Assembly (NCBI GenBank): GCA_964016885.1
Contig: OZ024741.1
Span: 106,206,001-106,270,000 of the forward strand
From: Eledone cirrhosa
Taxonomy: Eukaryota
Direction of reading: 5' to 3'
Length of the DNA stretch: 64,000 bases
Both the position numbers and the translations under genes were made by a program. Of this stretch, positions 2,113 through 62,551 are shown one piece after another. Position 1 is the first letter of the stretch, and each line of letters opens with the position of its first letter. The notes under the pieces are model-generated. The model was not told the origin of the DNA, did not search any database, and saw only the letters and a list, made by a program, of their open reading frames with translations.

Positions 2113-2299
2113 AATAGGTAGATAGATAGACAAATAGACAGATAGATAGATAATTAGGTTATGATGACTATGACAATGATGATGATGTCAGTTCTCAGCC
2201 CCATGCAACAACAGATTAGTTCATTGTATGCTGCGTGCTCTGTCCACGTGAGTGATGAACATGAGGGTTGTAGAGTTTGTAGTTCTCCAACAAGGAGAC

Positions 2300-2356
<57 letters not shown>

Positions 2357-2552
2357 ACATACATATATACATATACCTACATACACACATTACACACAAG
2401 CTAGAAGGAGATTGTGACAGTAAGCAATTGTTTAATTGTTTAGAGACATTATGACCAGGTGTGATATATACATCCAGAGAGAGAAGGAATTGTAAACGTC
2501 ATTGGCAGCAATGGAGTCAGAAGAGTAGTAGTAGTAGTAGTAGTAGTGGTGA

Positions 2553-2605
<53 letters not shown>

Positions 2606-2702
2606 AGTACCCTATCATTAAAATTACCATTTTTTTACCTTCTTTGACATTCCATCTTGATATTTCCTTTTAAATTCTTTTTGGTTCACAAGACATTGTA
2701 TC

Positions 2703-3170
2703 TATAATAATTGTTTCTACTTTAGGCACAAGGCCAGCAATTATCCAGTGTCTTACTGGTACTTTATTTTATCGACCCTGTAAGGATGAAAGGCAAAGTC
2801 AACCTCGGCGGGATTTGAACTCAGATCGTAAAGGGGCGTAACTATGCTGGAAAGCATGGCGTCCGACTCTCTACCGATACTGCCAATCCACAGCCCTCTA
2901 TAATAATTGTTTCTACTTTCGGCACAAGGCCAGCAATTACCCAGTACATTACTGGTACTTTATTTTATCGACCCGTAAGGATGAAAGGCAAAGTTAACCT
3001 CGGCAGGATTTGAACTCAGAATGGCAAGGGCCGTAACTCTATGCGTCAAAGCATGGCGTCCGACATAATAATGGTTTCTTATATAGGCACAAGGCCATCA
3101 ATTTTGGGGGATAGTGAAAGTCGATGAAATTGACCCTAATACTGGTACTTTATTTTATTGACCCTGTGAA
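2703..3170 (-). mobile_element. Tandem cluster of tRNA-derived SINEs (about 3 units)
   Basis: A-box-like TGGCAGTATCGG, B-box GAGTTCAAATCC, and shared body GCCTTTCATCCTTACGGGTCGATAAAATAAAGTACCAG. Related copies at 23013-23480, 44080-44268, about 52985-53145, 56950-57160 and 57885-58110. Confidence 0.8.
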
Positions 3171-3317
3171 GATTGCTTTGGGTTTAAAATTGTCTCATTT
3201 TCACTAAGAAAATGGAATGGATTTTGTTGGACAACCCAATACATAATAATACATATTTGGGGTGAAAATTTACAGAAGTAGAAATATGTAGGGTGCTCAG
3301 AAGCAGAAAATGATGGT

Positions 3318-3473
3318 AACTACAGTCAGTTGCTGCTATAAAATAGCTTATTAAAATCTAGGAAAGACCCTTAGAGACAGAAAGATCTTTGTAGCAGCCG
3401 CTGTTAACATTTTTCTGTCTCTAAGGGTTCTTACCAAATTTGTATTAGCTATATTATAGCAACTGACTGTAAT
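3318..3473. repeat. Long imperfect inverted repeat (MITE-like or hairpin)
   Basis: ACAGTCAGTTGCT/AGCAACTGACTGT and ACCCTTAGAGACAGAAA/TTTCTGTCTCTAAGGGT arms. Duplicate at about 23628-23783. Confidence 0.75.
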
Positions 3474-3482
3474 TGCAATTAT

Positions 3483-3544
<62 letters not shown>

Positions 3545-3917
3545 TATAGATAGATATCTTTCTTTATTTGCCACAGGGGCGTACAAAATGGGGACATTAC
3601 AAGACCAATGGCGGGGTTTTAAATAAAAATAACTTTAACATTAATAAATAACAATAAACTATATATAATAAAATAATAGATAGATTTCTTTATTAGCCAC
3701 AAGGGCGCAACAAGAAAGGGGACAATACAAAGACATGCCGGGGATTTTACATACAGTCGTGTAAAAAATATAAAAACAAACAATTTCAACAATCGAAATC
3801 CCCAATAGGGGGAGGCGCCACAAATGGGTTGTTTAATACCCCGTCGATAGAACAACCCTCAACTCAAGGAGCGTGTTGTGCAAGTGCTCCTTTCTTCCTT
3901 TTGCTCTCTTCCTCAAC

Positions 3918-6900
3918 CTACAGGCTTATAAACAGAGAAGGCCCAATCACTCGGGCCATTTTCGCTTCATTCACCCACCTTTCAGTAAATTTACTGGGGT
4001 GCAGTGCCTCTCTCTCCACCCTGATTCTCCTTCTAAAGTGATACTTAAAGAATGGAATCAATTGTTGTCCGGAGAGAAAGGCATCTGTCCTCAGTCCTCT
4101 CAACCTCGTCCACCATATAACTTCTTTCACCATAGCCACCGTACAGAGGAAAACCGCCTCTCTTTCGTTTTTGAAAGAGTCTGGCGGTTTGATCCTTACT
4201 ATGGACTCGACAGTCAACTGTATTTGTCCCATACGCGACAGCAGTTGTTCTGCATAGTTCCACAGGTCGCTTACGCCCGGGCAGTCTACAATTGCGTGCA
4301 GAACTGTTTCAATGTCCTGCGCACATCTTGGACACGTCCTCTTGGAAGGATCTCTGCCAGGGCGTCCGTGCCTGTAGATCTTGTCACGAACCGGTAGAGC
4401 TCCTCGGTAGCACTGCCAGGCCAGGGACCTCTGGAAGTTGTCCATAGGTCCCGGGCGGAAAGTCCTACCAAACATACTGGTGAGCTCATCGTCTTCGACG
4501 CCCAGAGTCTCTCCGAGCACGTCGTCGCCCTTGTAACGTACAATCCCTCTATAGAATGTCGAAGTGGAGTCTCCACTGATTGCTGCGCCCGCTTGCCAGA
4601 GGACTGTGAGCGCCTGAGCGCATTCAATGTGCCAGGCGCCCATCGTTTTCGGTCTTTTCTTCACCCAGGACTGCAGCTCCGTTAGCGAGACGAGCTGTGG
4701 GAAAGCCTGTCTCACAAACGGTGCCCACACCGGTTGGGGGTCGGTGAGGAATACCTAGAGATGCCGCAGCCTCAGCGCATGTTTGCGCATCATCAGCCAC
4801 GGCATTCCCAGCCCTCCGTTGGAAGGGTGCTGACAGCAGACGGATCTGATCTCCTCACCAGCGGAGCCTGCTTCTTCCACAGAAACTGGAAGAGCATGCG
4901 TTCCATCTTGGCGAGGTGTTCACGGGGACAAGGCACGACAGTCAAGCGGTAGTAGATGACGGACGCTATGAAAGTGTTCGCCACCTCCGCTCGACCTTTC
5001 AATGACAGTTTGCACTCTGCCCACTTCTGAGTGAGTGCAAACACCTTGGCCGTGACCTCGTTCCAGTTTTTCTCCACCTGGAGGTCTGGACCGAACCAGA
5101 CCCCGAGCAATTTCACCGGTCCGTCCGTCCAGCGTCCAACGACGCTGTCGGATGTCATCGGTTTGCCTCTCCACGTACCGAGTTGCAAACCGACAGACTT
5201 GTCTGGGTTTAGTTTTGCTCCCGTCAGCGTTTCGTATTCTTTCAGTATGTTGCCGATCACCCCGATTTCCGAGGTGCTCGACACCATTACTGTCACGTCG
5301 TCGGCATAAGCCGACGCCGTTTTGCGCAGTCCCGGTTCTAGGGGGATGCCCTGCAACAGCTCCAATTTCCGCAGTAGTGGCTCTAGAGTCAATACATACA
5401 GAATGGAGGAGAGAGGGCATCCCTGTCGAATGGAACGCGTGATTGCGAACGGCTCCGATAGGTAGCCGTTCACCTTGACCCTCGAGCAGATGCTGGTGTG
5501 CATCGCCTCGATCCATCCTCTGAACACGGGACCGAAACCGGCCGCCTTGAGAACCGCTTCCAAGTATCGATGGTTGACCCTATCGAATGCCTTAGACTGA
5601 TCCAAGTTGATCAGAGCCCCACCGAAGCCGGGTTTACTACCCACCCTCTCTATGATGTATCGCATGAGGTGGAGGTTGTCGTGCATGGACCTGGTCGGGA
5701 TTGCACACGTTTGCGCTTTCCCTACCAGGTTCTCGACGACAAGCGCCAACCTCGTCGCTAGCACCTTGGCCAAAATCTTTAACTCTGTGTTGAGCAGAGT
5801 TATGGGCCTGAAGTTGTTAATTTCGTCCCCCTTGTTCTCGTCTTTCCTGATCAGCGTTACTACGCCCTTGCCTGCAGAACTGGGAATTCTCCCGTTCTGC
5901 TGCCAATTGCAGTAGACGGCTTCGAGGACGCCAGAGAACAAGTCCGGCATGCCTATGTAAAATTCGTAGGGTAGACCATCTAGACCGGGTGACTTGCGTT
6001 TCCCGCAGCGGCCCAGAGCGTCCCGTATCTCAGTGTCTGTGATCGGTCTTTCGCAGAACTCGGCGTCCGTGTTCGAGAGACGCGGCAGGCCGTCGAGGTA
6101 TGAACTAAAGTCCATTGCCCCGTTCGGCTCACCGTCGTTCCGCTCAAACAGTCGCGCAAAGTGCCGCTGAAAGGCCGCGCACATTTGCTTGGGGTCAAGT
6201 AGCACGCGTCCGTTTTGGTCTTTCAAAGACCGAATCGTGGACTTGTTGCCACTTTTTGCCTCCGCCACTCGGGCCCAGCTGACAGCTTTCGCTCCTTCGT
6301 TTCCTAGAGCACGTGTTTTGCTTCTGACCACGCAGCCTTCGTGTTTCGCATCGAAGAACTGGTCCAGTGCCGTTCTCGACGCTAACACTCTAGCCGCGTT
6401 GCCACTTCTAAGTGCCTCCTCTACCTTGGCTACTAGTTCTCTTTCTATTCTGTTTTTCTCTAAGGCTAACTCTCTGCTATACCCTATCGATTCTATTCTA
6501 ATTGCTTTCTTGAGAGAGTACCACCATCTATTGTTGACGATGGCTCCCGTTAACTGTTGCTTGACTAGTTTACTTATCCGTTCACTGTAAGCTTTACGTG
6601 CCGGCAACGACACGTTCAGCTTCCAGTATCCGGGACCCTGTCTATGTATTCTATCACGGTTGACTAAGCAGACGACTAACTTGTGATCTGAATAGGCAAC
6701 CATGTGCATTCGTGGACAGCTTAACATATCCTTGTCCCTTTCTCTAATGAAGAACCTATCTAAATACGATCTAGATGTCCCACTGCGGTTTACCCACGTC
6801 CACTGTGGTGCAGTCGGGAAATCCAGTCGATACCTATCGGCCAGTTGGAATTGGCCGATTAAAGTTTTGACGCTGTTGCACCCCGCTCTACTGGGACATG

Positions 6901-7369
6901 CTCCCACATAGTCCCATCGTGCATCTAGGATACCATTCCAGTCCCCCACTAAAAGTAAGGAGCGAGACGTTCCCAGAAAAGACTCTAGACGCTTAAAGAA
7001 GTCTGGCCGTGATTGCGATTGCCCGGTCGGGGCATAAACGGCCACCAGTCTGAAGGCTCCACCTCCGATACTGTTCACGTCTAGGACTACCAGTCTACCC
7101 TCCGGGTCCAAGTGTACTTGCTGTACTCCGACGTCCAGGTTCTTCCGAAACATAACAGCCACTCCACCTCCACCTCCTGGCTGACAGAGAGATGCGTAGA
7201 TCTCAAAGTCGTCGAAGATGGGGGTTAGTTGCTGCCTGTTGTGGATTCTGGACTCGGTGATGGCTATCACATCCATACTGTGTGACCTAAGGTCGTTTAA
7301 AAGTTGGCCCTGTTTCCAGGGCATCCCTAGGCCACGCACATTCACGGTTCCAACTCGTAAACCAGCCAT
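3918..7369 (-). pseudogene. Tx1 ORF2 (APE endonuclease, reverse transcriptase, C-terminal Zn finger), frameshifted
   Basis: Motifs NVRGL, VYAP, GDWN, SDH, KSPGLDG, FRPITLLN, DQSKAFDRV, RQGCPLS, AYADD and CPRC...HAIVDC. A 5-bp tandem duplication (GATCT twice, 4843-4852) breaks the frame. Confidence 0.92.
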
Positions 7370-7410
7370 GTTGGTGAAGAAAAGTTGGAGAAAAAGGACG
7401 AAAGGTGCAC

Positions 7411-9283
7411 TTACCTTTTCGTTTCCTGGAGATCGGGTTGTTCAATCTCCATTTGGGTGCTGGATGGGGTGTTGGGTGGGGTGGGGAAACCTTTCAACAG
7501 GACGCGGTTGATGGGTTTGTGGCAGGGGTTGCCCACGTCCTGTGAAAATTTAATTTTCAGGTCTTTATAGGTTTCCATAGAAACCCTTATAAGTTTAAGG
7601 TGTGGAGACGATTCTGCCTTGACGAAAGTTTTGCCCTCCGTCTCCACCTTGGGGTTTTGGGAGATGACCTCCATCAAACTCTTGTTGTTTGTGTTGATGT
7701 ATGCGTATTGTTGTTTGTGTTTTTGTTGTATTGTTTTTCATCTGGGAGTTTTCTTTTTATGGTGGGTGCTTGTGTTTGGGGTGGTGTTGGTGCTGGTTTT
7801 GCTGATAGGGGGGTGTTTGACTGTGGTGTTGTTTGTGTTGTTGTTTGTGTCTGTGGTTGTGTGTTGGTGTTGGTGATTGGAGTTTTGGGGGTTTTGTGGT
7901 GTCTCTTTTTTTGTTTTTGGGATTTCCGCGGTTCTCCCTCTTCTTCACTTAAAGAAGAAGCAGCAGCTTCATCCGTCGATGAATAATCATCGTCAGGTGT
8001 GTGGGGTAAGGGTATGTTGTGTGGTGGTGGTGGTGTTTCGGTATGTGTGTTTGTGGTAGTGTTTGATGGAGTGGGATGGAGTGGGGATGTGTTCTTCAGG
8101 GGTGTTGTCTCTGTTTTTTCTGTTGTTGTTGGTTGAGTGTCTGTTTGTTTTGGTGTGGTTGCTCGTTTCGTCTGTCGTTGTACTTGTGGTGGTGGTGGTG
8201 GTGGTTGTTTTGGTGTTGGTGTTGGTAATAGCGTTTTTTTTATGATGTTGCTGTTGTGTGTTTGTGGACAAGAGGCTTTTAGGTGAGATGTGCTACCACA
8301 GCGAAAGCAGTGAAATTTTCTTCCTTCTACCAAAATGTTTATTTTGTTGTTATTATCAATAACGACTCTTCCGGGTATTTTGGAGATTCTCTCCGGTTTC
8401 ATTTGCAACAGAATCTCCAAATCGGTGCCCGCCCACCTTTGTCGAATGGATTTTCGTATCGAAAGTATTATGTCTGTTTCTGGCTCTACGAAGCCAGCCA
8501 AGATCCACCAGATGTTAATGCTTGGAGGTATGTTTGTTATTTTTTTTTTTTGTGTCCTTTTCCCCATGTATGTAGGGAAAAAGGTGTATGCTTTTGACAC
8601 TATTGGTGTCACAGAGTTTTTTTGGGCCAGTGTCTCGCTTTTAAACAGTACGGAAACGCTTCCGTACTGTTTTCCTCGCTGGAGAAAATCGACATTTGCT
8701 AGAATCTCCTTGAAAGAATCTTCTATATCTGACTGGTTAACAAATGTCGGTTTTCTTGACGAATTTGACACAGTCCTAAAAGTGACTGATCGGCGGTTTG
8801 TGTCTTCCTTTATTTCAAGGGGTGAGTTAATTCTAAACCCACCTCTTTCTTCGAAAGTTACAAATTTTCTCCCTTGCTGGAGCATATCTCTTGCGTTGGA
8901 GATATCAAGATTTATAAAATCTTGTTTCTTGTTGACTGTGTCAGCAAAAGACATTTTCTTTTTTTTTGTGTGATGTTGTTGTTGATAATGATGTTATCGT
9001 TGTTGGAAATTGTATGTGTAGATGTATCTGTAGAGTTGTTGATGTCTTTTTCATGTGTATGTATGTCAATGGGTTTTTTTGCCGTGTTTTCCCGTGTGTT
9101 ATTGTCATTTTTCTCCGCTTCGGCGGTAGAAATTGTAACATTTTCAAATGTTGATATATTTTTTTCTTTTGTGACAGTATCTATGGCAACGTCCATAGCA
9201 GCAGAAGCAGATATAACGTTAATATCTGCCTCTTTCTCTCTCTTTTCACTATTAACGTTCTCCAGCGTTCTAGTGTTGCTCAA
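7411..9283 (-). pseudogene. Tx1 ORF1 (gag-like, CCHC zinc knuckle, low-complexity P/T/Q region), split at two A-runs
   Basis: ORFs 8912-9283, 7674-8954 and 7411-7677 join via single-base shifts at homopolymers (about 8960 and 7736). CFRCGSTSHLKASC knuckle present. Confidence 0.8.
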
Positions 9284-9401
9284 GTTTTTTTTACTTTGTA
9301 AAATTTGATATTTTAAGACAAACTTTTAAATAAAATTTTCGCCCCTACAGGGGCGAAAAATGGGATTACCACCCAGCTGACAATTCAGCTTGGGGGTTAA
9401 T

Positions 9402-9469
9402 CTACAAAGTGTTGTATTTTTTTCAAACAATTAGATCGGTTTTTGCATAGAAATTAACAAAAAACTTAC
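9402..9469 (-). other. Putative 68-nt spliceosomal intron in the Tx1 family B 5' UTR
   Basis: CCG|GTAAGT ... TCTAAT branch point ... CTTTGTAG|. Same position and length as the family A intron. Confidence 0.62.
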
Positions 9470-9529
9470 CGGCGATATTCCACACGTTAGACAGAAAGAT
9501 AGATAGATAGATAGATAAAATAATAGATA

Positions 9530-9906
9530 TATTTCTTTATTAGCCACAGGGGCACAAAAGAAGGGGACAAATACAAAGGAGGAAGTTTACATACAATAAA
9601 AACGTGTAAAATGTTATCACAGATGGAATTTAAAAGTTAGTCGATTTTCCCCAATAGAGGGAGACAGTTTATATGGGTAACACAGACCCCCGAAAAAAAT
9701 GTGCAACCCTCATCTCCAGGAGTACGAAGAGCTTGTACTCCTTTCCTCTCCTCCTCCTTTTCCTCAACCTACAGGCTGATATAGAGAGAAGGCCCATTCA
9801 CTCGGGCCATTCTCGCCACTTTCACCCACCTTTCATAAAACTTGCTGGGGTACAGCACCTCTCTCTCCATCCTGATTCTTCTTCCAAAGTGGTATTTGAA
9901 AAAAAG
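9530..9906 (-). mobile_element. Tx1 family C, 5'-truncated copy
   Basis: ORF2 C-terminus and 3' UTR matching 11512-11950; flanked by AAAATAATAGATA at 9517 and 9907. Confidence 0.85.
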
Positions 9907-11122: not shown

Positions 11123-11176
<54 letters not shown>

Positions 11177-11511
11177 ATGTATATATGTATGTATGTATAT
11201 ATATGTTTATATATTTAAAGAGAGAGACTGCAATATGAAGAAGAGAAAGACTAAGATAAAGTTGAAAAATATAAGGAGGGAGAGAAAAAAAGAGATAGAC
11301 TTTAAGATATAAAGATAATAGAAGTTTTGATAAGGAAAGAAGGTTAAATGTTATTCAGTCATTGTCCAAGCCTAGCTTAACTCTGTTCACTTAACTATAG
11401 ACATTGTTAATAAAACAAGTCTTTTAGCTATTAACTAAATAGCAATGACACGTTATTGTTGGTGGCGGTCTTCTTCTTCTCCTACTCATTCTTTATCTAT
11501 CTATCTATATG

Positions 11512-11950
11512 TATGGTGGACAAGGTTGAAAGGGCTGAGGTCAGACACATTTCTCTCCGGCCAACAACTGATTCTTTTTTTCAAATACCACTTTGGAAGA
11601 AGAATCAGGATGGAGAGAGGGGTGTTGTACCCCAGCAAGTTTTATGAAAGGTGGGTGAAAGTGGCGAGAATGGCCCGAGTGAATGTGCCTTCTTTCTATG
11701 TCAGCCTGTAGGTTGAGGAAAAAGAGGAGGAAAGGAAGGGAATATAAACTCTTCGTACTCCTGGAGATGAGGGTTGCACATTTTTTTCGAGGGTATGTGT
11801 TACCCATATGAACTGTCTCCCCCTATTGGGGAAAATCGACTAATTTTTAAATTGCATTTGTGATAATATTTTACACGTTTTTATTGTATGTAAACTTCCC
11901 CCTTTGTATTTGTCCCCTTCTTTTGTGCCCCTGTGGCTAATAAAGAAACA
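11512..11950 (+). mobile_element. Tx1 family C, 5'-truncated copy with 18-bp TSD
   Basis: WWTRLKGLRSDTFLSGQQLI...YVSL*; TSD TATCTATCTATATGTATG at 11498-11515 and 11951-11968. Duplicate at 28253-28691. Confidence 0.88.
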
Positions 11951-12207
11951 TATCTATCTATATGTATGTATGTCTTTCTTTATCTATCTATCTGTCACAA
12001 TCCACCTGTGTCTCTCTGTCTATTAGCACTGTGTATATGTGTATATATGTATGTGTGTCTATATGTGTGTATGTGTATATAAGTATGTATAAGAGCTGTA
12101 TACCAACTTCATTGTTCACTAAATATTGACTCTAAAGATAATCTTGTGAAAATATATGTATGTGTATATATATATATGTGTATATATATATATGCATACA
12201 CACATAC

Positions 12208-12239
<32 letters not shown>

Positions 12240-13269
12240 TGTGTATATAATACTACCTTAATGGTTCACCAAAGATTGACTCCATCACATAATCCTATGG
12301 AAATGTGAAGAACGTTCTACCAATGCGTCATGGCTGACACGTGGTGACAGACACTGCTGTATAATGTCACTGGAATGTTGTTGGTGTTGTGATGGTGGTG
12401 TTGTTGTTGTGGTGGTGGTGGTGGTGGTGGTGGAACTGGTCATAGAGACATTGGAATAGTGGTGGTGGTGATGGTGTTGTGGTTGTGTTGTAGTGGTGCT
12501 GGCGATGGCAACACTCTTCTTGTTGTTCAGTTATAGGTCAAGCTCATCAAGCTGACCTATGATCAAAAGAATTTCATTTGTGACATTCTCATATTTTTTC
12601 AATCACAATCTACCAAGGCTACACTATCTAATGTAACTTTACTTTTTCACATGTGTATCCTCTTGGACAGGTATCGTCTGCCATAGCCTTGATATAGTAA
12701 GTAAAAACACTTAGTGTTTTGGTTGCTAGTCCTTCATTGGAAGATAGAATGAGAAATAAAAGAAGGTATGTTTGGGAGAGAGGAGGAAATAGAAAGATAG
12801 ATCAAAGATACTCTGGATCTTTCTCAGCAAACACATGTATGTGCCATTGATTTTCTTTGTGAGTTTTTATGTGTTGTGGAGAAGATAACTCCCATAGTAC
12901 CTGGTGCCCACCTGTGCAGGGTTATGTGAATATCCATTTGGAAAACAGGAATGGTGATTGTGCTGAGAAGTGAACACTGATAAACAGTTGTTTTAGTTTT
13001 CAGTTCTTGTTTGCCTAGTGGAGGAACCAATCATCAGGTCAATGGTAGGGGAATTCTGCCTCCATCAGTGGGGCACTGTGCTGGTAAGAGTGATGGAAAA
13101 TCATCAGAGTATTTCTATTAAAAGTAACTAGTACTAACAGGAGTTCCTCAGTTAGTGCCCATGATTTTCTGTCTCCACATGGTCCTGAAGAAGGCTCAAC
13201 TCCTTCCTATGAAGATGATGTTCTCAATCATACTGGAGTAGCATCCTCTGATATCAGAACCAAGAGGGG

Positions 13270-14330
13270 ACTATCTCGACCAAAGAGATTATACACCTTC
13301 AGCTCTCTAAACTGTCACTCACTCACATCCTACTTTTCACGTGAAGAGCTCAACAAGCATATCAACACACACAGCATTGTGATTGTATATGTTCAAGAAC
13401 ACTAACGAAAATGAACCAGGCATAATCACCCAGAACATTGGCAAAAGAACTCTGTTTACTGCATCAGCATAAAAAGATGACATCGGTGCTGCAATTGGGT
13501 TAGTTTGACAATACAAACACATCTTCTTCTTATACTTACAAAGGTAACTAAGGTTAAGGTTAATGATTGGATTGTCACATCAGTATTCAAGGGAAATCCA
13601 GCAACTGTTATTATAAGCTGCTATTCACCCTACAATCACCTGCAAGTGGAGGAAATAGAACACTTTTACCATGAACCAAGTGCCGCTTTCTGAAGTACCT
13701 CCACATGCCATGCTAATTATTGGAGGAGATTTCAACACACAAATTAAAGGCAAATTTTCATACCATCAGACTACTAACAGAAAAGGCGTATTTTTAGAAA
13801 AGTTTTTACCTCAACATAATCTCCTAGGTGGGAATACCATCTTCCAAAAACTGTGGACTTGAAGACACTTGGTAGCCATATCTCCCATGTTGAATTTGTT
13901 TATATGAAACAATGGAGGAACAGAATTCATGATTGCCAGGGACATATTTCCTCTGCAGCTGTTAGGGGAGATTGCAACATCATCATGGCCAAAACTCAGC
14001 CTTCACTCAAACAGGAAATCCAGTAAGAAACAACTTTACTGGAGGATGCTAAAGGAAGATGTCAACCATGCAAGAACAATTGATAATTCAATTGCTAATT
14101 AATCTGAATCCTTGACAGCTAATGAGAAAAAATACACTTCTTTTGTGTCCATCTGTAATGAAGTAGGGGAAGAAAACCTACCAAGAATCACTCGAGCCAC
14201 ACTTCATGTGGAAAATACAATAATTGCTACATTTAGAAGCCACACCCTCAAATCAGTTTCAGATGTACAGCATCCCCAGATCACCAGAATATTCAGTGCT
14301 CTAATTTCAACCATCTGGAGTATGAAAGAA
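13270..14330 (+). pseudogene. Old degenerate LINE APE-endonuclease remnant
   Basis: Fragments IISCYSP, LIIGGDFN and NLLGGNTIFQK across several frames; duplicate at about 30030-31100. Confidence 0.6.
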
Positions 14331-14483
14331 TCACCCAAACCCTGGTTGATTTAGAGAATAGTATATATATATATATATACAGTATATATATATATATATA
14401 TATACAGTATATATATATATATATATACAGTATATATATATATATATTTATATACTGTATATATATATATATATATATATACA

Positions 14484-14541
<58 letters not shown>

Positions 14542-14555
14542 TATATATATATATC

Positions 14556-19878
<5,323 letters not shown>

Positions 19879-19962: not shown

Positions 19963-20893
19963 TTTGTGGCCTTCTACCCATGCACGTAGGGTAGAAAGTG
20001 TATGCGGCGGATGTAATTGGTTTTATGGACAGTTTGACTGCTGTGTCCCTGTCCTTCATGAGAAAGGATAGACTCCCGTAGAGTCTATCCTTCTGAATGA
20101 ATATGATGTCTTTCATGACAGCTTTTAAAACCAGCTCTATCTCACTCTGTGATGGTTGAGCTGGTTTTTTGCTTTTGTTTCAGACTGTCCTAAACATGAC
20201 AGTGTTTAGGAGTCTCTGGCTTTTTAGTTCCGGGGGGGGGGTCGAAAATGATCCATTTTCCCCATACACTACGTATATTTTGGCATCTGCCAGTAGCTCC
20301 TTAGCTTTGCTTATATCTACTAGCAGATAGTCGAGGGTTTTCCCTGCAGTCTGGGCGAAGGAGTCCTTTTCCTTGTTCATGTTGCTGTTGTTGTTATCAT
20401 TGTTGTTGATGTTGTTGTTGTTTTTGTTGTCTTTATTGTTGCTGTTGTTGTTGTTTTTGTTGTCTTTATTGTTGCTGTTGTTGTCGTTGTTGTTGTTGTT
20501 TTCAGTTTCTTGTATAGTTGTGGCTACATCAAGTTGTCGGTCAGCAGGTGGAGAAAGTTCTACCTCTGGCTGACCTCTGCCTTTGGCATCTGCTGCTGTG
20601 ACAGTGGCAGGGGGAAGCTGTGAGTTTAACTTCCCTTTTCTTCCTTTGAATGTTGGTGAAGATGCTTCAGCCATTTTTATCAAAGTAGGATTTTTCGAAA
20701 TTTTTCGAAAGATAAAATTTTTTCACCACTATTTCGCCTAAAGGCGTAGAATATTTTGAGAGACTGACCAGATCAAAATTTGATCTGGCAGTCCCTCTAC
20801 AAAATGGTACAAAAATGAAAGTTTACAGTTAGGAATTTCTATAGAAATTTAGGCAGAACTTACCCAGCAAGTTTCACGCGTGTGTCCATCCCA
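19963..20893 (-). mobile_element. Tx1 family A 5' fragment (5' UTR plus partial ORF1), cut at the duplication junction
   Basis: ORFs 20180-20683 and part of 19688-20116 are homologous to family B ORF1 (AYTFYPTCMGRRPQK vs AYTFFPTYMGKRTQK). Confidence 0.8.
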
Positions 20894-21187
20894 GATAGAT
20901 AGATAGATAGATATCTTTCTTTATTTGCCACAGGGGCGTACAAAAATGGGACATTACAAGACGTAACGGCGGGGTTTTACATAAAAATAACTTTAACATT
21001 AATAAATAACAATAAACTATATATAATAAAATAATAGATAGATAGATAGTTAGCTAGATTGACAAACAGACAGACAGAGACAGACAGACAGTTAGATAGA
21101 GAGGCAGATAGACAGACAGGCAGACAGACAGACAGATAGATACATAGACAAATAGACAGGGAGATAGATAGACAGATAGATAGATAT

Positions 21188-22312
21188 ATTTCTTTATTTA
21201 CCATAAAGGCATAAAAAGAAGGGACAAATACAAAGGGGGAGTTTACATAAAACCGAGTAAAAAGGGTATAAAATGAAAATAGTCGAAAACAACCTCAAAA
21301 GGGAGGGGACGTGATGGGGGTTGCACACACACCCGAAAAAGTGTGCAATCCTTTGCCCGGGAAGCACATGGAGAAGGTGCTCCCCTCTCCTTCACTTCTT
21401 TACCTACAGGATGGTATACAGAGAAGGCCCATTTACACGAGCCATTCTCGCCACTATCACCCACCTTTCATAAAACTGCCTGTGGCCAAGCACCTCTCTC
21501 TCCATTCTTATCCTTCTTCCGAAGTGATATCGGAAGAAGTAGACCAGACTATAGGCCAGAGAGGAAGTTGCCTGACCTCAGACCTTTCAATCGTGTGCAC
21601 CAAACAACCTCTTTCAACATGGCTATTACGCACAGAAAAACCGCCTTTGCTTCCTTTGTGAAGAGGGGAGGCGGCTTGATTGTCATCACGGACTCGGCGG
21701 TCAATCGAATCGGCGCCACCCGCAACAGCAGTCGTTCGGCGTAGCCCCACAGATCAGCCACGCCCGGACATTGCATCAATGCGTGCGCAACGGTTTCTTC
21801 GTGACGCACGCATCTAGGGCAAATCTTTTTCGAGGGATCCCTGCCCGGGCGCCCGTGTCTGTAGAGCCTCTCTCGAACGTGATTTCTGGAAGTTGTCCAT
21901 TGGTCCCGGGCCGAAAGTCCTACCGAACAGGCTGGCCAGTTCATCCTCTTCCATGTCCATCGACTCTCCAAGGGTGTCATCGCCCCTGCTAGCCACTAGC
22001 CCTCTATAGAATGATGAGGTGGATTCTCCACCGATGGCCGGGCCTGCTTGCCAGAGTGCCCTGAGCGCCTGGGCACACTCAGTGTGCCAGTCTCCCAATC
22101 TGCTAATCCGGTTTCTGTAAGTTTCTTTTGCCGGTAAAGACAAATTAAGTTTCCAGTAACCGGGACCCTGTTTATGTGTTTTCTCGAGATTGACTACGCA
22201 GGTCACTAATTTGTGATCCGTATAGCCAACCGTGAGCATTTTTGGACAGCTTAATATGTCCCTATCCTTACTTCTAACTAAGAATCTATCTAAGTACGAT
22301 CTAGATTGACTA
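21188..22312 (-). mobile_element. Duplicate of the internally deleted Tx1 family D
   Basis: Near-identical to 958-2112, with an additional small deletion near 21879. Confidence 0.85.
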
Positions 22313-22329
22313 ATAGATAGATAGATAGA

Positions 22330-22426: not shown

Positions 22427-22598
22427 AGACAAATAGACAGATAGATAGATAATTAGGTTATGATGACTATGACAATGATGATGATGTCAGTTCTCAGCCC
22501 CATGCAACAACAGATTAGTTCATTGTATGCTGCGTGCTCTGTCCACGTGAGTGATGAACATGAGTGTTGTAGAGTTTGTAGTTCTCCAGCAAGGAGAC

Positions 22599-22633
<35 letters not shown>

Positions 22634-22806
22634 ATGTATGTATACATACATATATACATATACATACATACACACATTACACACAAGCTAGAAGGAGATT
22701 GTGACAGTAAGCAATTGTTTAATTGTTTAGAGACATTATGACCAGGTGTGATATATACATCCAGAGAGAGAAGGAATTGTAAACGTCATTGGCAGCAATG
22801 GAGTCA

Positions 22807-22849
<43 letters not shown>

Positions 22850-22853
22850 GGTG

Positions 22854-22916
<63 letters not shown>

Positions 22917-23820
22917 AGTACCCTATCATTAAAATTACCATTTTTTTACCTTCTTTGACATTCCATCTTGATATTTCCTTTTAAATTCTTTCTGCTTCAC
23001 AAGACATTGTATCTATAATAATTGTTTCTACTTTAGGCACGAGGCCAGCAATTACCCAGTGTATTACTGGTACTTTATTTTATCGACCCTGTAAGGATGA
23101 AAGGCAAAGTCAACCTCGGCGGGATTTGAACTCAGATCGTAAAGGGGCGTAACTATGCTGGAAAGCATGGCGTCCGACTCTCTACCGATACTGCCAATCC
23201 ACAGCCCTCTATAATAATTGTTTCTATTTTGGCACAAGGCCAGCAATTACCCAGTACATTACTGGTACTTTATTTTATCGACCCGTAAGGATGAAAGGCA
23301 AAGTTAACCTCGGCAGGATTTGAACTCAGAATGGCAAGGGCCGTAACTCTATGCGTCAAAGCATGGCGTCCGACATAATAATGGTTTCTTATATAGGCAC
23401 AAGGCCATCAATTTTGGGGGATAGTGAAAGTCGATGAAATTGACCCTAATACTGGTACTTTATTTTATTGACCCTGTGAAGATTGCTTTGGGTTTAAAAT
23501 TGTCTCATTTTCACTAAGAAAATGGAATGGATTTTTTGGGACAACCCAATACATAATAATACATATTTTGGGTGAAAATTTACAGAAGTAGAAATATGTA
23601 GGGTGCTCAGAAGCAGAAAATGATGGTAACTACAGTCAGTTGCTGCTATAAAATAGCTTATTAAAATCTAGGAAAGACCCTTAGAGACAGAACGATCTTT
23701 GTAGCAGCCGCTGTTAACATTTTTCTGTCTCTAAGGGTTCTTACCAAATTTTTATTAGCTATATTATAGCAACTGACTGTAATTGCAATTATTAGATAGA
23801 TAGATAGATAGATAGATAGA

Positions 23821-23905
23821 TATATTTCTTTATTAGCCACAGGGGCACAAAAGAAGGGGACAAATACAAAGGGGGAAGTTTACATACAATAAAAACGTGT
23901 AAAAT

Positions 23906-23937: not shown

Positions 23938-24231
23938 TCTTTCTGTATTTGCCACAGGGGCGTACAAAATGGGGACATTACAAGACCAATGGCGGGGTTT
24001 TAAATAAAAATAACTTTAACATTAATAAATAACAATAAACTATATATAATAAAATAATAGATAGATAGATAGTTAGCTAGATTGACAAACAGACACACAG
24101 AGAGACAGACAGACAGACAGTTAGATAGAGAGGCAGATAGACAGACAGGCAGACAGGCAGACAGACAGACAGATAGACAAATAGACAGGGAGATAGATAG
24201 ACATCATCATCTTCATTATCACCACCACTGC

Positions 24232-24269
<38 letters not shown>

Positions 24270-24872
24270 CCATCATCACCATCACCATCCTCCTCATCAT
24301 CACCATCACCGTCGTTATTATCACCATCATTACCACCCTTATCATCACCACTACCACCACCATTATCATCATCATCACCATCACTATCACCATCACTGTC
24401 ATTACCGCTGCTATCATCACCATCACCATCATAGTTACCATTGACGTCATCAATAATTACCACAATAATAAACAGAATGCTAACAATAACAACAACAACA
24501 AAAGGAAAGGTTGAATTTTTGTATTCTATATTCCATATTTTTCCAGTGAGTTATGACAATATGTTAATGTAAGGTTAACAGCAATCTACACACACATACA
24601 CACATATATATATATACACACACATACAGACACATACACAACCATACATATACACTCACATACACACATACACATACACACATACACATATATACATATA
24701 AACACACACACACAGTGGAAGTTACACTAGTCATGTGTTTTGTTCCATAGTGGTGTAGAAATGTCATCTTAGAGGCTCTCTTTTTTGGAATATATATATA
24801 TATATACATATATACACACACACATATACATATACATATACATACACACACACACATATATATATGCATGCA

Positions 24873-27929
<3,057 letters not shown>

Positions 27930-28252
27930 TGTATGTATATATATGTTTATATATTTAAAGAGAGAGACTGCAATATGAAGAAGAGAAAGACTAAGATAAA
28001 GTTGAAAAATATAAGGAGGGAGAGAATAAAAGAGATAAACGTTAAGGTATAAAGATAATAGAATGTTTGATAATGAAGGAAAAAAGGTTAAATGTCCAGT
28101 CATTGTCCAAGCCTAGCTTAACTCTGTTCACTTAACTATAGACATTGTTAATAAAACAAGTCTTTTAGTTATTAACTAAATAGCAATGACACGTTATTGT
28201 TGGTGGCGGTTTTCTTCTTCTCCTACTCATTCTTTATCTATCTATCTATATG

Positions 28253-28691
28253 TATGGTGGACAAGGTTGAAAGGGCTGAGGTCAGACACATTTCTCTCCG
28301 GCCAACAACTGATTCTTTTTTTCAAATACCACTTTGGAAGAAGAATCAGGATGGAGAGAGAGGTGTTGTACCCCAGCAAGGTTTATGAAAGGTGGGTGAA
28401 AGTGGCGAGAATGGCCCGAGTGAATGTGCCTTCTTTCTATGTCAGCCTTTAGGTTGAGGAAAAAGAGGAGGAAAGGAAGGGAATATAAACTCTTCGTACT
28501 CCTGGAGATGAGGGTTTCACATTTTTTTCGAGGGTATGTGTTACCCATATGAACTGTCTCCCCCTATTGGGGAAAATCAACTAATTTTTAAATTGCATTT
28601 GTGATAATATTTTACACGTTTTTATTGTATGTAAACTTCCCCCTTTGGATTTGTCCCCTTCTTTTGTGCCCCTGTGGCTAATAAAGAAACA
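28253..28691 (+). mobile_element. Duplicate of the Tx1 family C truncated copy
   Basis: Near-identical to 11512-11950. Confidence 0.85.
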
Positions 28692-28957
28692 TATCTATCT
28701 ATATGTATGTCTGTCTTTCTTTATCTATCTATCTGTCACAATCCACCTGTGTCTCTCTGTCTATTAGCACTGTGTATATGTGTATATATGTATGTGTGTC
28801 TATATGTGTGTATGTGTATATAAGTATGTATAAGAGCTGTATACCAACTTCATTGTTCACTAAATATTGACTCTAAAGATAATCTTGTGAAAATATATGT
28901 ATGTGTATATATATATATGTGTATATATATATATATATGCATACACACATACATATG

Positions 28958-28988
<31 letters not shown>

Positions 28989-31152
28989 ATATAATACTAC
29001 CTTAATGGTTCACCAAAGATTGACTCCATCACATAATCCTATGGAAATGTGAAGAACGTTCTACCAATGCATCATGGCTGACACATGGTGACAGACACTG
29101 CTGTATAATGTCACTGGAATGTTGTTGGTGTTGTGATGGTGGTGGTGTTGTTGTTGTGGTGGTGGTGGTGGTGGTGGTGGAACTGGTCATAGAGACATTG
29201 GAATAGTGGTGGTGGTGATGGTGTTGTGGTTGTGTTGTAGTGGTGCTGGCGATGGCAACACTCTTCTTGTTGTTCAGTTATAGGTCAAGCTCATCAAGCT
29301 GACCTATGATCAAAAGAATTTCATTTGTGACATTCTCATATTTTTTCAATCACAATCTACCAAGGCTACACTATCTAATGTAACTTTACTTTTTCCAGAA
29401 AACCTTTTACACATGTGTATCCTCTTGGACAGGTATCATCTGCCATAGCCTTGATATAGTAAGTAAAAACACTTAGTGTTTTGGTTGCTAGTCCTTCATT
29501 GGAAGATAGAATGAGAAAGAAAAGAAGGTATGTTTGGGAGAGAGGAAGAAATAGAAAGATAGATCAAAGATACTCTGGATCTTTCTCAGCAAACACATGT
29601 ATGTGCCATTGATTTTCTTTGTGAGTTTTTATGTGTTGTGGAGAAGATAACTCCCATAGTACCTGGTGCCCACCTGTGCAGGGTTATGTGAATATCCATT
29701 TGGAAAACAGGAATGGTGATTGTGCTGAGAAGTGAACACTGATAAACAGTTGTTTTAGTTTTCAGTTCTTGTTTGCCTAGTGGAGGAACCAATCATCAGG
29801 TCAATGGTAGGGGAATTCTGCCTCCATCAGTGGGGCACTGTGCTGGTAAGAGTGATGGAAAATCATCAGAGTATTTCTATTAAAAGTAACTAGTACTAAC
29901 AGGAGTTCCTCAGTTAGTGCCCATGATTTTCTGTCTCCACATGGTCCTGAAGAAGGCTCAATTCCTTCCTATGAAGATGATGTTCTCAATCATACTGGAG
30001 TAGCATCCTCTGATATCAGAACCAAGAGGGGACTATCTCAACCAAAGAGATTATACACCTTCAGCTCTCTAAACTGTCACTCACTCACATCCTACTTTTC
30101 ACGTGAAGAGCTCAACAAGCATATCAACACACACAGCATTGTGATTGTATATGTTCAAGAACACTAACGAAAATGAACCAGGCATAATCACCCAGAACAT
30201 TGGCAAAAGAACTCTGTTTACTGCATCAGCATAAAAAGATGACATCGGTGCTGCAATTGGGTTAGTTTGACAATACAAACACATCTTCTTCTTATACTTA
30301 CAAAGGTAACTAAGGTTAAGGTTAATGATTGGATTGTCACAGCAGTATTCAAGGGAAATCCAGCAACTGTTATTATAAGCTGCTATTCACCCTACAATCA
30401 CCTGCAAGTGGAGGAAATAGAACACTTTTACCATGAACCAAGTGCCGCTTTCTGAAGTACCTCCACATGCCATGCTAATTATTGGAGGAGATTTCAACAC
30501 ACAAATTAAAGGCAAATTTTCATACCATCAGACTACTAACAGAAAAGGCATATTTTTAGAAAAGTTTTTACCTCAACATAATCTCCTAGGTGGGAATACC
30601 ATCTTCCAAAAACTGTGGACTTGAAGACACTTGGCAGCCATATCTCCCATGTTGAATTTGTTTATATGAAACAATGGAGGAACAGAATTCATGATTGCCA
30701 GGGACATATTTCCTCTGCAGCTGTTAGGGGAGATTGCAACATCATCATGGCCAAAATTAAACTCAGCCTTCACTCAAACAGGAAATCCAGTAAGAAACAA
30801 CTTTACTGGAGGATGCTAAAGGAAGATGTCAACCATGCAAGAACAATTGATAATTCAATTGCTAATTAATCTGAATCCTTGACAGCTAATGAGAAAAAAT
30901 ACACTTCTTTTGTGTCCATCTGTAATGAAGTAGGGGAAGAAAACCTACCAAGAAGCACTCGTGCCACACTTCATGTGGAAAATACAATAATTGCTACATT
31001 TAGAAGCCACACCCTCAAATCAGTTTCAGATGTACAGCATCCCCAGATCACCAGAATATTCAGTGCTCTAATTTCAACCATCTGGAGTATGAAAGAATCA
31101 CCCAAACCCTGGTTGATTTAGAGAATAGTATATATATATATATATATATACA

Positions 31153-31198
<46 letters not shown>

Positions 31199-31320
31199 TA
31201 TATATATATATATATACAGTATATATATATATATATATACAGTATATATATATATATATATATATACAGTATATATATATATATATATACAGTATATATA
31301 TATATATATATATATATATA

Positions 31321-32103: not shown

Positions 32104-32157
<54 letters not shown>

Positions 32158-32209
32158 TATATATATATATACAGTATATATATATATACAGTATATATAT
32201 ATATACAGT

Positions 32210-35200
32210 ATCATCATCATCATCAGGTTTAGCGTCCGTGTTCCATGCTTGCATGGGTTTGGACGGGGGTTTTCCCACTTGAGGCAAGAGTGGTTGTCTT
32301 GCTCGCATAGGACTGTCTGGCGGGTTTTCTACAGTTGGATGCCCTTCCTAACACCAACCACATTTACAGTGTGGGGCTGGGAGGTTTTTACCGTGTTGCC
32401 TACACGGCCACATTACAGCGTGGACTGTCTGGCGGGTTTTCTACAGCTGGATGCCCTTCCTAACACCAACCACATTTACAGTGTGGGGCTGGGAGGTTTT
32501 TACCGTGTTGCCTACACGGCCACATTTACAACGTGGACTGTGTGTTTTTTTGTCGTGACACCTACACAATCTCATTTGTTTCGGCCTGGATGTTGTGGGA
32601 CCAACATAACTTTACATTGAAAGGGGCGGTGTGGATGGGGTGGAGGTGGTGGGACGGGGGGGGGTTGATAGAGATGCCTACTGACTGTAGTAGGTTTTTA
32701 CTTTGTATTTAGGTAAGGCGGGTCTTCTCTATTACTGAGTACCGCCAAAGGTCTCGGTCCAGTGACATTGTCTTGGAGAGGTGTAAGCGTGTGAGGTCGG
32801 AATTTATCAGCTCGTCCCATGTTTTTCTGGGTCTGCCTACTCCGTGGCTACCGTCTATCTTTATTGCCCTGCACTTTGTTATACAGCTGTCGTCTTTCAT
32901 GCGCATCACGTGACCGTACCAACGTAGCCTTCTCTCGAGTAAACAACATCTGATCCCTCTTATTTCTAATTTTTTCCTTAGTTCGTTTATGCTTTGCCGT
33001 TCACGTATATTACTATTGCACATCCAGCGGAGCATGCAAGCTTCGTTCCTCTCTAGTCTGCGTATATCCTCTGCACACAATGCCCAGGTCTCACTGCCAT
33101 GCAGCATTGCTGTTCGTATGCAGGCATCGTATAACCTGCCTTTCATTTTTAGGGAGAACCCTCTAGCGGCTAATAGTGGTATAAGCTCTCTGAACTTTTT
33201 CCATCCAGTTCTGACTCTAGCTACTGTACTTTCAGAGCACCCTCCCCCACTGCTGATTTTGTCACCCAGATAACGGAAGCTGTCCACTATTTCTATAGAA
33301 CCCTCTGCGCAGTTGAAGGAGCTAGTATTTTGTGGGCACTTGCTGCTACTTATTGCACCAGAGCACCGGCCACATGTAAAATCTATGTTCTTAGTTAGCT
33401 TACCTGTGATCCCACTACATCTTTTATGCACCCATACTTTGCATTTGGGACATAAAATGGAGTTTCTACCTACGCCTTTCCTACACACCGAGCATGGCCA
33501 TTTCCCAGATGGGACTGCCACCTTATTTTCTTTCCTACAAACTAGAACTTTAGTCTTAGCCAGGTTAATTTTAAGGCCTTTTGATTCTAAGCCGTGCTTC
33601 CATGTTTGGAATTTCTTCTCTAGTTCGGTCATTGATTCAGCTATGAGCGTTAGATCATCTGCGTATAGGAGTTCCCATGGGCAGCCGGTCTTGAACTCCT
33701 CTGTTATAGCCTGAAGGGCAATAATAAATAGTAGGGGGCTAAGAACAGAGCCCTGATGGACACCAACTTTTACGCTAAACTCTTCACTATATTCGTTGTT
33801 AATTCTAACCTTACTGACTATTTCTTTATACATGGCTTGTATAGCTCTCACAAGCCATTCGTCAACACCTAGTTTTCTAAGAGACCACCAGATAATGGAA
33901 CGGGGGACTCTGTCGAAGGCTTTCTCCAAGTCGACGAAAGCTAAGTATAGGGGTTTACTTTTAGCAAGGTACTTCTCCTGTAGTTGTCGTACAATGAAAA
34001 GAGCGTCTGTGGTACTTTTGCCTGACACAAATCCGAACTGCATTTCATCTAGATCAATTCTCTCTCTGATTAGTTGCGCTATTACTTTTTCCGTGACCTT
34101 CATGACCTGGTCGATTAATTTAATGCCTCTATAGTTACTCCTATCTAGGGCATCTCCTTTTCCCTTATAGCAGTTAACGATGATGCTGCTACGCCAGTCC
34201 TTCGGAACAACCCCATTCTGTACGACTTGGTTAACTATCCGGGTGACCATGGTGTGTCCCACCGAACCAGATGCCTTCAGCATCTCAGCAACTATTTCCG
34301 AAGGCCCAGCCACCTTACCCATCTTCATATCTTTGATTGCCTTGCTTATTGTACTACCCTGGACTAACACTGCTGGTCCCTCTATTGGGTCGATGTGGGG
34401 GAGACTGTCTTTCTCCCATTTGTTCTCCTCATTTAGAAGCCTTTCGTAGTGACACTTCCAAGCTACCTTCTTATCAGCGTCGGTGATGGCAAGTATGCCA
34501 TCATCGTTAAGTACACACTTCTCCCCGTCAATATCACGGTTTTCCTTGACACATTGCCTGGCAATCCTGAACACCTCACGTTTTTGGTCCTCACGTTGTA
34601 GAACATGCTTGAACTTTCTTTCCTCTGCTTCCCTTCTTGCGAAGTACACTTGTCTCCTAGCTTCCCTCCTGGCCACCTGATAGTCTTCTCTACTTCCCCC
34701 ATCCCGCCATACTTTCCAAGCCTGCTTTTTGGCCTTAATTGACTCCTCCACCTTACTGTTCCACCACCATGTTACTCTCCTCCTACCTACAGGCCTGCTC
34801 CAGCCACAGACTTCGTCTGCCGCCGTCAGCAGGTTTGCTCTCAGGAATTCTCACTGTTCCTCTATATTATACGACTCTAATTTCTCTTCCTTACTGTCGA
34901 AAGCGTCAAGTAATATGCTTTGAAATTTATTTCTGGCTATGGGGTCCTTTAGCTTCCATATTTTTCTCCTGAGGATAGTCCTCTTCCGCTGTCTAGTACG
35001 TCTCGTCCTGACTATGAGGTCGCTAATTATCAGTCTATGTTGGGAGGTGAATTCTTCATGGGGGAGGGATTTAGTGTTAACAACAGACACTCTGTCACGT
35101 CTTCTGGTAAGGATATAATCTACCTGGCTTGTGTGTTCCCCCGATCTATAGGTGATCAAGTGATTGTCTCGTTTTTTGAAGTTAGTGTTACAGATAGTTA

Positions 35201-36065
35201 AGTTATTTGCGTCGCAGAATTCCAGGATTCTGGAGCCTTCCTCATTTCTAGTACCGAACCCATAGCCTCCATGGATTCTGTCATAGCCGTCACAATGTTG
35301 TCCAACGTGACCATTTAGGTCGCCTGCAATAACTATATAGTCACTGTCGGTTATTTGGGAGGTAGCGAGCATCAGTGTCTCGTAGAATCTGTCTTTTATA
35401 GCACCGGGCAGTCCGGATTGTGGTGCGTACGCAGATATTACTGTCACCGTAGTTTTATTGAGGACAAGTCTTATTTTAATTATTCTGTCGTTCACTCTAT
35501 TTACGTCTATTATCTTATCTGCCCACTTTTCTGCTACCATGATTCCTACCCCACCCAACCCATTGTCATTTCCCACCCAGAAAAGCTTATAGCATCGTTC
35601 TTTACCCACGATGAATGTAGCCGACCCTCCCCTCCACCTGGTCTCTTGAATACAACAAACATCGACCTCCTTACGTTCAAGCATTTCTACAACCTCGTTA
35701 GAGCGACCCTTTAAGGTGCCTACATTCATGGTACCAACTCTGAAGTTTTGGATTGCGTTTGGAGGGTGGGAGCGGTGGGGCGCGGGGGGGGATGGGGTTA
35801 TGTTAGCCATCCTGGGCCGAAACAAGGCGGAGTGCTTGCATTCTCGTCCACGAGGTGAATTTGTCTTTATCTTTGGCATTGTCGCTGAGCGTCCACATTT
35901 TTCTCTCTTCAACTCTCCAGAATTCCGTAGTCCATCCATCATATCGAAAAGCAACCAGTTAAGCGATAGTATGGGCCTCTGACTTATGATTGGTCCACGT
36001 AATAATGGTGGTGCGTGGGGGCGGGTCGGAGGGATGATGGGTTGTTAGCGAGAATGTAAGGTTTA
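32210..36065 (-). mobile_element. RTE LINE, essentially full length, one nonsense codon
   Basis: ORFs 34851-35954 (EN) and 32709-34751 (RT-PHD) share one frame, split by TGA where the 25001 copy has TGG (W). (GAT)n tail at 32210-32225. Confidence 0.93.

Positions 36066-40595: not shown

Positions 40596-40597
<2 letters not shown>
36265..40597 (-). mobile_element. Penelope-like element (RT plus GIY-YIG; Cys-rich linker suggests Neptune type) with pLTR-like 3' region
   Basis: Motifs LSKGLKFTPTP, KEADKG, YGLPKIHK, LRPIV, SFDVVNLYT, GTAMGT, RYLDD, CGRSNCGTC and LIYAIKC...YIGQT...RMTVH. Frameshifts near 39730 and 38760. Hammerhead at 36403-36440. Confidence 0.92.
36403..36440 (-). ncRNA. Minimal type I hammerhead ribozyme, U3-A8 variant
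   Basis: CCTT-TTGAAAA-GCAG(AAGAA)CTGC-GAAAC(TG)GTA-AAGG. Confidence 0.7.
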
Positions 40598-40644
<47 letters not shown>

Positions 40645-40714
40645 GTATATATATATATATATATACAGGTATATATATATATATATATATACAGGTATAT
40701 ATATATATATATAC

Positions 40715-40776
<62 letters not shown>

Positions 40777-41063
40777 GTATATATATATATATACAGGTAT
40801 ATATATATATATACAGGTATATATATATATATATATACAGGTATATATATGTGTATATAGAGAGAGAGAGAGAATAACATTAGAATTTAGCTTTGAACAT
40901 AGCTGTATACAAATATGTATTTGAATTTTGTATTTCTAAAGAAATATGGTATGTTTATAAAAACATTTAGAAAGACATAGCTATGAGCTTCATATGCAAA
41001 TGTGATTAATCCCTTCATTTACACAGACGAAAAAACTATATATTTTTACCTGTTTTCAAAGAC

Positions 41064-62522: not shown

Positions 62523-62551
62523 CTGGAAGAAGAAGAAGAAGAAGAAGAAGA

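Follow-up and report, generated by a model that had tools for sequence, protein, structure and literature searches.

A candidate intron retained in the leader of L1/Tx1-type LINEs of Eledone cirrhosa

Here, we describe a full-length L1/Tx1-type LINE, termed element B, which lies on the minus strand of a 64-kb stretch of Eledone cirrhosa DNA (contig OZ024741.1; hereafter, the window) and carries, near its 5′ end, a 68-nt segment with the signals of a U2-type intron, i.e., a GTRAGT donor, a branch-like word and a YAG acceptor, in the right order and at a workable length. Judged from these sequence signals, the segment is plausibly a genuine intron that is spliced out of only part of the transcripts, the unspliced RNA being the copying template, as in Penelope; we give this reading about an even chance. 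Predicted hairpins follow the segment, its signals are retained in a diverged family in the same window, and a comparable arrangement recurs, in part, in distant relatives from another animal.

Element B has the makeup of an L1-group (APE-type) non-LTR retrotransposon, with an APE endonuclease and a reverse transcriptase, a separate ORF1, a target-site duplication and no LTR (Table 1). ORF2 matches Exo_endo_phos (E 4.5e-14), corresponding to the N-terminal APE endonuclease, and RVT_1 (E 7.9e-28) in Pfam; its best solved relative is human L1 ORF2p (E 2e-52) and its closest named relative, with 63% identity, comes from Argonauta hians. The CCHC knuckle of ORF1 is weak in the domain search (zf-CCHC, E 0.049). 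Self-alignment of element B revealed no terminal repeat and the Pfam search returned an APE domain without GIY-YIG, which places the element outside the Penelope-like elements. The Tx1 label, a putative one, fits by structure and target, a preference for repeats being common in that clade though not obligatory: among the family-type 3′ ends in the window, several of which are segmental duplicates, 11 of 12 run into TATC repeats and the remaining one into TTC. The 15-bp duplication brackets the whole copy, so that element B is a single insertion made from RNA, and given that the 68-nt segment is present in it, the segment survived reverse transcription. Uninterrupted versions of the 15-bp site are found within the window at 792–806, 21026–21040 and 24049–24063. 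On the inner side of the 5′ target-site duplication comes a (TATC)n run of about 17 nt, and the RNA may begin in the flanking microsatellite; this head was either carried on the RNA or may have arisen by later expansion.

Table 1. Features of element B and of the homologous family A segments, in window coordinates
Feature	Positions	Strand	Basis or remark
5′ target-site duplication copy, 15 bp	9515–9529	−	identical 15 bp at 3668–3682
(TATC)n head, between duplication and unique leader	9498–9514	−	sequence
Putative exon 1 of leader, 20–28 nt	9470–9497	−	sequence; aligns with family A around ACGYGTG
Intron-like segment, 68 nt	9402–9469	−	donor 9469–9464, branch-like CTAAT 9434–9430, acceptor TTTGTAG 9408–9402
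Hairpin 1, 16 predicted pairs	9364–9402	−	opens on acceptor G; both-sided changes versus family A
Hairpin 2, 10-bp stem, 4-nt loop	9336–9359	−	inverted repeat; z −4.1
ORF1	7411–9196	−	first in-frame ATG 9196, stop 7413–7411, frameshifts; CCHC knuckle
Second donor-like GTAAGT	7409–7414	−	overlaps ORF1 stop, 40 nt before ORF2 ATG
ORF2	3918–7369	−	APE endonuclease, reverse transcriptase, zf-RVT; two frames, broken near 4790
3′ UTR, family tail with AATAAA at end	3683–3917	−	tail ends near 3685
3′ target-site duplication copy	3668–3682	−	pairs with 9515–9529
Homologous 67-nt segment, family A leader copy 1	563–629	−	pattern scan and alignment
Homologous 67-nt segment, family A leader copy 2	20797–20863	−	segmental duplicate of copy 1

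The window as a whole is repeat-rich animal DNA. A 5′-truncated relative sits at the insertion site of element B (9530–9906, minus strand) and has its own 13-bp duplication (9919–9907 and 9529–9517), while a third family of the same group (62526–62574, minus strand) ends in (TTC)n, a Koshi-type target, and not in (TATC)n. Another LINE, encoding a reverse transcriptase and a C-terminal PHD finger, is present in three copies (15125–19660 and 24759–27957 on the plus strand, 32133–36049 on the minus strand), the first of which is split by a piece of family B, its 3′ 890 bp (16000–16893, 99% identical). Frameshifted ORFs with a terminal GIY-YIG domain at 37457–40879 (minus strand) probably represent a Penelope-like element. 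Local segmental duplications of 96–97% identity link 1–2130 with 20235–22329, 2128–3515 with 22427–23825, and 11160–14554 with 27900–31317.

Read on the minus strand from 9469 to 9402, the segment is exactly 68 nt long, opens with GTAAGT, contains TCTAAT (9435–9430), which sets the putative branch A at −30, and closes with TTTGTAG. The position and signals given in an earlier note, which placed such an intron near the start of the leader, are thus confirmed; its distance of about 20 nt into the unique leader becomes 20–28 nt, according to where the (TATC)n head is cut. The pyrimidine tract of B is poor, being A-rich between the branch site and the AG; it is better in family A, the second family with this leader in the window, and in about half of the B sequencing depth, and strong (67–83% pyrimidine) in some of the distant relatives (group 2, below). 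A scan of the 64 kb for the donor–branch–acceptor pattern returned three places only, namely, the leader of B and both leaders of family A, where the strict pattern, written after viewing these leaders, would be expected 0.02 times. A generic loose pattern has an expectation of 2.3 matches window-wide and is matched by 1 in 5000 shuffles of the B leader.

From the acceptor onward, the leader is predicted to fold into two hairpins, both largely as the earlier note had them. Hairpin 1 indeed starts on the acceptor G, running from 9402 to 9364, and hairpin 2 proved to be the perfect 10-bp inverted repeat that had been described. Folded jointly, they reach a predicted −36.1 kcal/mol (z −6.0), with none of 200 shuffles as good. 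In the contigs of the sequencing runs discussed below, variation in hairpin 2 is greatest in the loop, where base 9348 is variable in 37% of the depth, compared with 22% for the terminal stem base 9337. An inversion of this loop, guessed from a contig loose end, was dropped given that the letters do not fit. A search of the leader against Rfam gave no match at the gathering score; the best hit (E 0.45) reached 19.8 bits, where 70 would be needed.

Comparison with family A is informative on what has been retained. The two family A leaders belong to one segmental duplication (96% identity) and therefore count as a single insertion. The leaders of A and B are 59% identical over 223 columns, close to the 60% identity of the ORF1 DNA (42% for the ORF1 protein), and share the hairpin 1 core CCA(A)G/CTGG; taken together, this level of identity and the common core point to one inherited arrangement seen twice, so that family A, being homologous, cannot be counted as independent support for B, as the earlier note had proposed. 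Across the segment, the two families are identical at 39 of 68 positions, but the donor and YAG are identical at 9 of 9 as against 30 of 59 positions in the intron body (Fisher p 0.004, for positions designated as signals after the fact), and position by position, five pairs of hairpin 1 differ on both sides with pairing kept. The A–B comparison accordingly reads, at the sequence level, as selection on the splice signals beyond that on the intron body. Thus, the retention of signals and pairing upholds that part of the earlier proposal which invoked selection on splicing and structure, whereas the further clause, that this acted in place of shared sequence, fails.

To what extent copies lacking the segment exist can be judged from sequencing runs. 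Two of these, X1 and X2, are genome-sized contig sets of unrecorded kind, with 509 and 217 matched contigs, respectively. No joint skipping the segment was found in these contigs, which cover it from donor to acceptor, with a sensitivity limited by an exon side of at most 28 nt. Hence a majority of intron-less genomic copies, which the earlier note had named as grounds for abandoning the intron, does not appear in the material seen, and a minority class is possible. Six changes in the intron body occur at 35–52% of the depth, whereas the 18 signal positions have a single listed variant, at 2%; by itself, this within-family contrast falls short of significance (1 of 18 versus 10 of 50 variable positions, p 0.14). 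Among the contig loose ends listed, TAG is still the terminal triplet of three diverged intron 3′ halves. Contig depth, when summed, is roughly tenfold higher over hairpin 1 than over the intron, an excess that is explained in part by such diverged introns and to which intron-less or truncated copies may add. Run X5, also of unrecorded kind, has only 4 contigs on the leader, of which one continues into an intron-like end and none contains the joint, and no weight is given to its gap in coverage over the intron; its record 12 (window 9349–9393) shows about 20 extra bases between an acceptor-like TGTAG and the hairpin 1 core. Raw reads of run X9 (109) cross both splice sites and contain the intron, but are short AATT-bounded pieces, among which a spliced copy would probably have been missed, and they carry no weight here; runs X4, X6 and X8 have no coverage of the leader. 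In viral contigs, the leader arrangement was not found.

More distant relatives came from a scan of prokaryote genomes, which yielded 40 loci in a single MAG, CAXXMW01, in the form of head-to-tail LINE arrays that are evidently host-animal DNA. The MAG is filed as Arenicella, and the arrays (L057–L094, L098 and L108), evidently contamination from the host animal, consist of units of about 6.4–6.9 kb, with nearly identical reverse transcriptases but several types of leaders and ORF1. These LINEs are 42–43% identical to B in ORF2 and 22–28% in ORF1, and form one clade with B (SH-aLRT 99) in a quick tree of unnamed rows only. Anchoring on the leader hairpin recovered 53 distinct copies with about ten leader types, the copies lying in tandem arrays. 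A GTAAGT or GTAAGA donor is present in all 53 leaders, compared with 12% of shuffled leaders, and lies 200–380 nt upstream of the ORF1 start in each of the 51 starts with full upstream sequence. No spliced, intron-less junction was found among these 53 leaders and 51 ORF1 starts.

The relatives fall into two groups. In group 2, all 15 leaders contain a canonical GT–AG segment of 175–197 nt, with a pyrimidine tract and an AG-free zone of 28–128 nt before the YAG, one copy carrying TAG in place of CAG. The acceptor G is predicted to open a 10-bp stem, as in A and B, and in 4 of the 5 subfamilies folded, the donor is predicted to be fully paired (probability 1.0) in a stem of 14–16 bp; in the predicted stems of A and B, it is only partly buried. 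The leaders of the relatives have no evident sequence likeness to that of B, and given this dissimilarity, group 2 represents independent support for the arrangement. Group 1 (38 copies, one of them incomplete) combines the donor with a U-rich tract and a strong hairpin, without a consistent acceptor: in 24 of 37 leaders an AG lies 62–65 nt past the donor, just before the hairpin, but in 18 of these 24 it is the poor AAG, and the other 13 lack an AG in the whole stretch from donor to hairpin. Ahead of the ATG, the site reads TAG in 18 of 37 and TGG in 19 of 37 leaders, an exchange that keeps the stem and not the acceptor. In sequence terms, it is chiefly the group 1 leaders that speak for a donor that would matter more than the acceptor. 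The relatives thus answer only in part the objection, foreseen in the earlier note, that others might lack the arrangement: the donor is kept in all of them, and a clear acceptor in only some. Farther away, of 56 metagenome loci, the 27 that extend far enough upstream (21–33% identity), many with shortened leaders, showed no shared leader arrangement. Two distant LINE contigs have a donor-like word just before ORF1, near the contig start (L001:28 and L008:19), and another, L007, a strong acceptor-like site in the leader (about 100). A search among longer proteins found no ORF1 relatives.

Donor-like words are not confined to the leader. In the relatives, GGTAAGT occupies all 61 ORF1/ORF2 junctions, with the stop 5 nt earlier than in the B arrangement, and a third word, GTRAGT, lies about 14 nt past the ORF2 stop (L077:543–562 and equivalents); in relatives that read past the ORF2 stop, the next stop lies within this word. 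By their placement, these words favour a wider use of U1-type sites in the lineage, and those at the ORF1 and ORF2 stops suggest a role other than leader splicing. The junction search among the relatives found no ORF1-only copies, i.e., copies with ORF2 skipped.

Among known systems, the closest analogy is with Penelope-like elements. Penelope of Drosophila virilis has a 75-bp leader intron, 46 bp after the start of the element, which is needed for protein output and not for RNA level, according to the accessible text of PMC2377424, and the leader intron of Chlamys-3_cRei shares its position with that of Penelope (PMC8557442). The part of the latter source available to us treats the retention of introns through retrotransposition as a highly unusual trait that marks Penelope-like elements, with its significance stated as unknown. 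Element B resembles these two elements in having a short intron, or intron-like segment, in the 5′ UTR, tens of bases past the 5′ end, that is kept in elements copied from RNA, and in the conservation of donor and acceptor between diverged families. By contrast, Penelope-like elements encode a GIY-YIG endonuclease, have pseudo-LTRs and are demonstrably spliced, whereas B, whose splicing is predicted from sequence signals, belongs to the two-ORF LINEs of the APE type; it is flanked by a target-site duplication, lacks any terminal repeat from which an intron could be restored, and has a predicted stem that opens at the acceptor G. Thus, if spliced, the B leader would work like the Penelope leader intron, although B itself is not a Penelope-like element.

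Human L1, another L1-group LINE, has conserved 5′ UTR splice sites as well; these are cryptic, their spliced products (SpIREs) are dead ends that make up about 2% of full-length insertions, and it is the unspliced RNA that makes lasting copies, as far as the accessible text of PMC5860796 goes. There, several acceptors are in use across hundreds of bases, and a transcription-factor site accounts for the splice sites, whereas B has a compact intron-like unit of fixed spacing and no spliced copy was seen; the B copy itself, which contains the segment, is no SpIRE. In the combination of APE and reverse transcriptase, two ORFs and insertion into simple repeats, B is like the Tx1-clade LINEs Kibi and Koshi and the crocodilian Tx1 elements, which target (TC)n, (TTC)n, (TTCC)n or (TTTC)n, compared with (TATC)n for B; in the portion of that source available (PMC4494074), no mention of a leader intron in microsatellite-targeting Tx1 LINEs was found. 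L1-Tx1 families have been recently active in Octopus vulgaris, with introns unmentioned in the main text (PMC13282606, available in part). More generally, a search of mainly open-access literature turned up no account of a leader intron conserved in an L1/Tx1-type LINE.

How a LINE could keep an intron is best considered together with the alternatives. If the segment is a partly spliced intron, transcription would start at or just before the leader, the spliced leader RNA would serve as mRNA, and the unspliced RNA would be the template for copies able to transpose again. The predicted stems, in which the acceptor G and the bases that open the exon are paired in B, A and the relatives, and which bury the donor, could damp splicing, and damped splicing would let unspliced RNA survive. 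Intron-less daughters would then be rare or dead ends, through loss of promoter sequence or poor translation, effects that have been measured in Penelope and in the SpIREs of human L1. The hardest fact for a partly spliced intron is that no intron-less copy was seen, given that such copies would be expected to be common if splicing were frequent and copying occurred in cis; this reading therefore needs either infrequent splicing or spliced RNA that is seldom copied. The weak tract of B, the donor as the sole universal signal in the relatives, and the extra donors at the ORF ends also speak against it. These observations, the weak tract apart, would be natural for a decoy intron, in which the donor is bound by U1 snRNP, and the 3′ signals perhaps by U2 factors, while the segment is rarely or never excised, and which could boost transcription, block early polyadenylation, keep the transcript nuclear or shield the element from host surveillance directed at intronless DNA. 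There is precedent for such roles, since 5′ splice-site motifs cause nuclear retention of RNA (PMC9074902 and bioRxiv 310433, both available in part) and introns counter HUSH repression even without splicing (PMC8770142, likewise), a HUSH system in molluscs being an assumption. Yet a decoy hardly calls for the complete canonical 3′ signals kept in A, B and all group 2 leaders, and a donor predicted to be fully paired in most group 2 subfamilies is odd for constant U1 binding. We regard a decoy as the main rival, possible if doubtful. A retrovirus-like cycle with two RNAs, common to the whole lineage, in which a structure-gated leader intron, perhaps along with the ORF1-stop donor, sorts spliced mRNA from an unspliced template that is held in the nucleus and is the only RNA copied, in trans via its 3′ tail, appears unlikely.

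The remaining explanations dispense with the intron altogether or reassign its parts. The words could be conserved for a role in the DNA, as promoter motifs, or within RNA stems, with splicing as a rare cryptic cost, for which the human L1 5′ UTR donor within a RUNX3 site offers a precedent (PMC5860796, in the part available); the group 2 donor is indeed one arm of its stem, the acceptor G is the first stem base, and the TAG/TGG exchange of group 1 preserves pairing. However, this would require that a donor, a branch-like word, a tract and a YAG came to lie in intron order and spacing in two unlike leader designs, and the acceptor T and A and the tract are predicted to be unpaired in A and group 2, all of which renders it decidedly improbable. 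Elements are stacked in each other's tails in both the window and the relatives, and upstream elements carry free donors, so one could imagine that the acceptor serves read-through RNA from upstream array elements, or trans-splicing, giving ORF1 a clean 5′ end, with the local donor being secondary. We consider this very improbable, considering that each full-length copy starts 20–130 nt before its own donor, that this donor is kept, and that no copy headed by a foreign exon was seen among the relatives. As for a chance resemblance in an AT-rich leader, inherited without selection, the shared ancestry of A and B and the fitting of the strict pattern to them would allow it, but the near absence of even the loose pattern from shuffled leaders, the excess conservation of the signals and the recurrence in distant relatives weigh heavily against; as far as sequence can tell, chance is largely refuted by signal conservation and the distant relatives, and it is the least probable of all the explanations considered. 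An upstream ORF was also rejected as the reason for the intron: the one in B has 5 codons and lies in the segment, that of A is a different one located in exon 1, and 9 of 10 relative leaders have none.

If the segment is indeed a partly spliced intron, then a two-ORF LINE without a terminal repeat, and with predicted stems at its splice sites, keeps an intron, and this trait would be independent of the mechanism of Penelope. Should the unlikely two-RNA cycle be true, the lineage would break the rule of cis preference known from L1, and the LINE would look intron-bearing to host surveillance. In any case, if spliced, the B lineage would constitute a small, many-copy test case for how LINEs separate mRNA from template.
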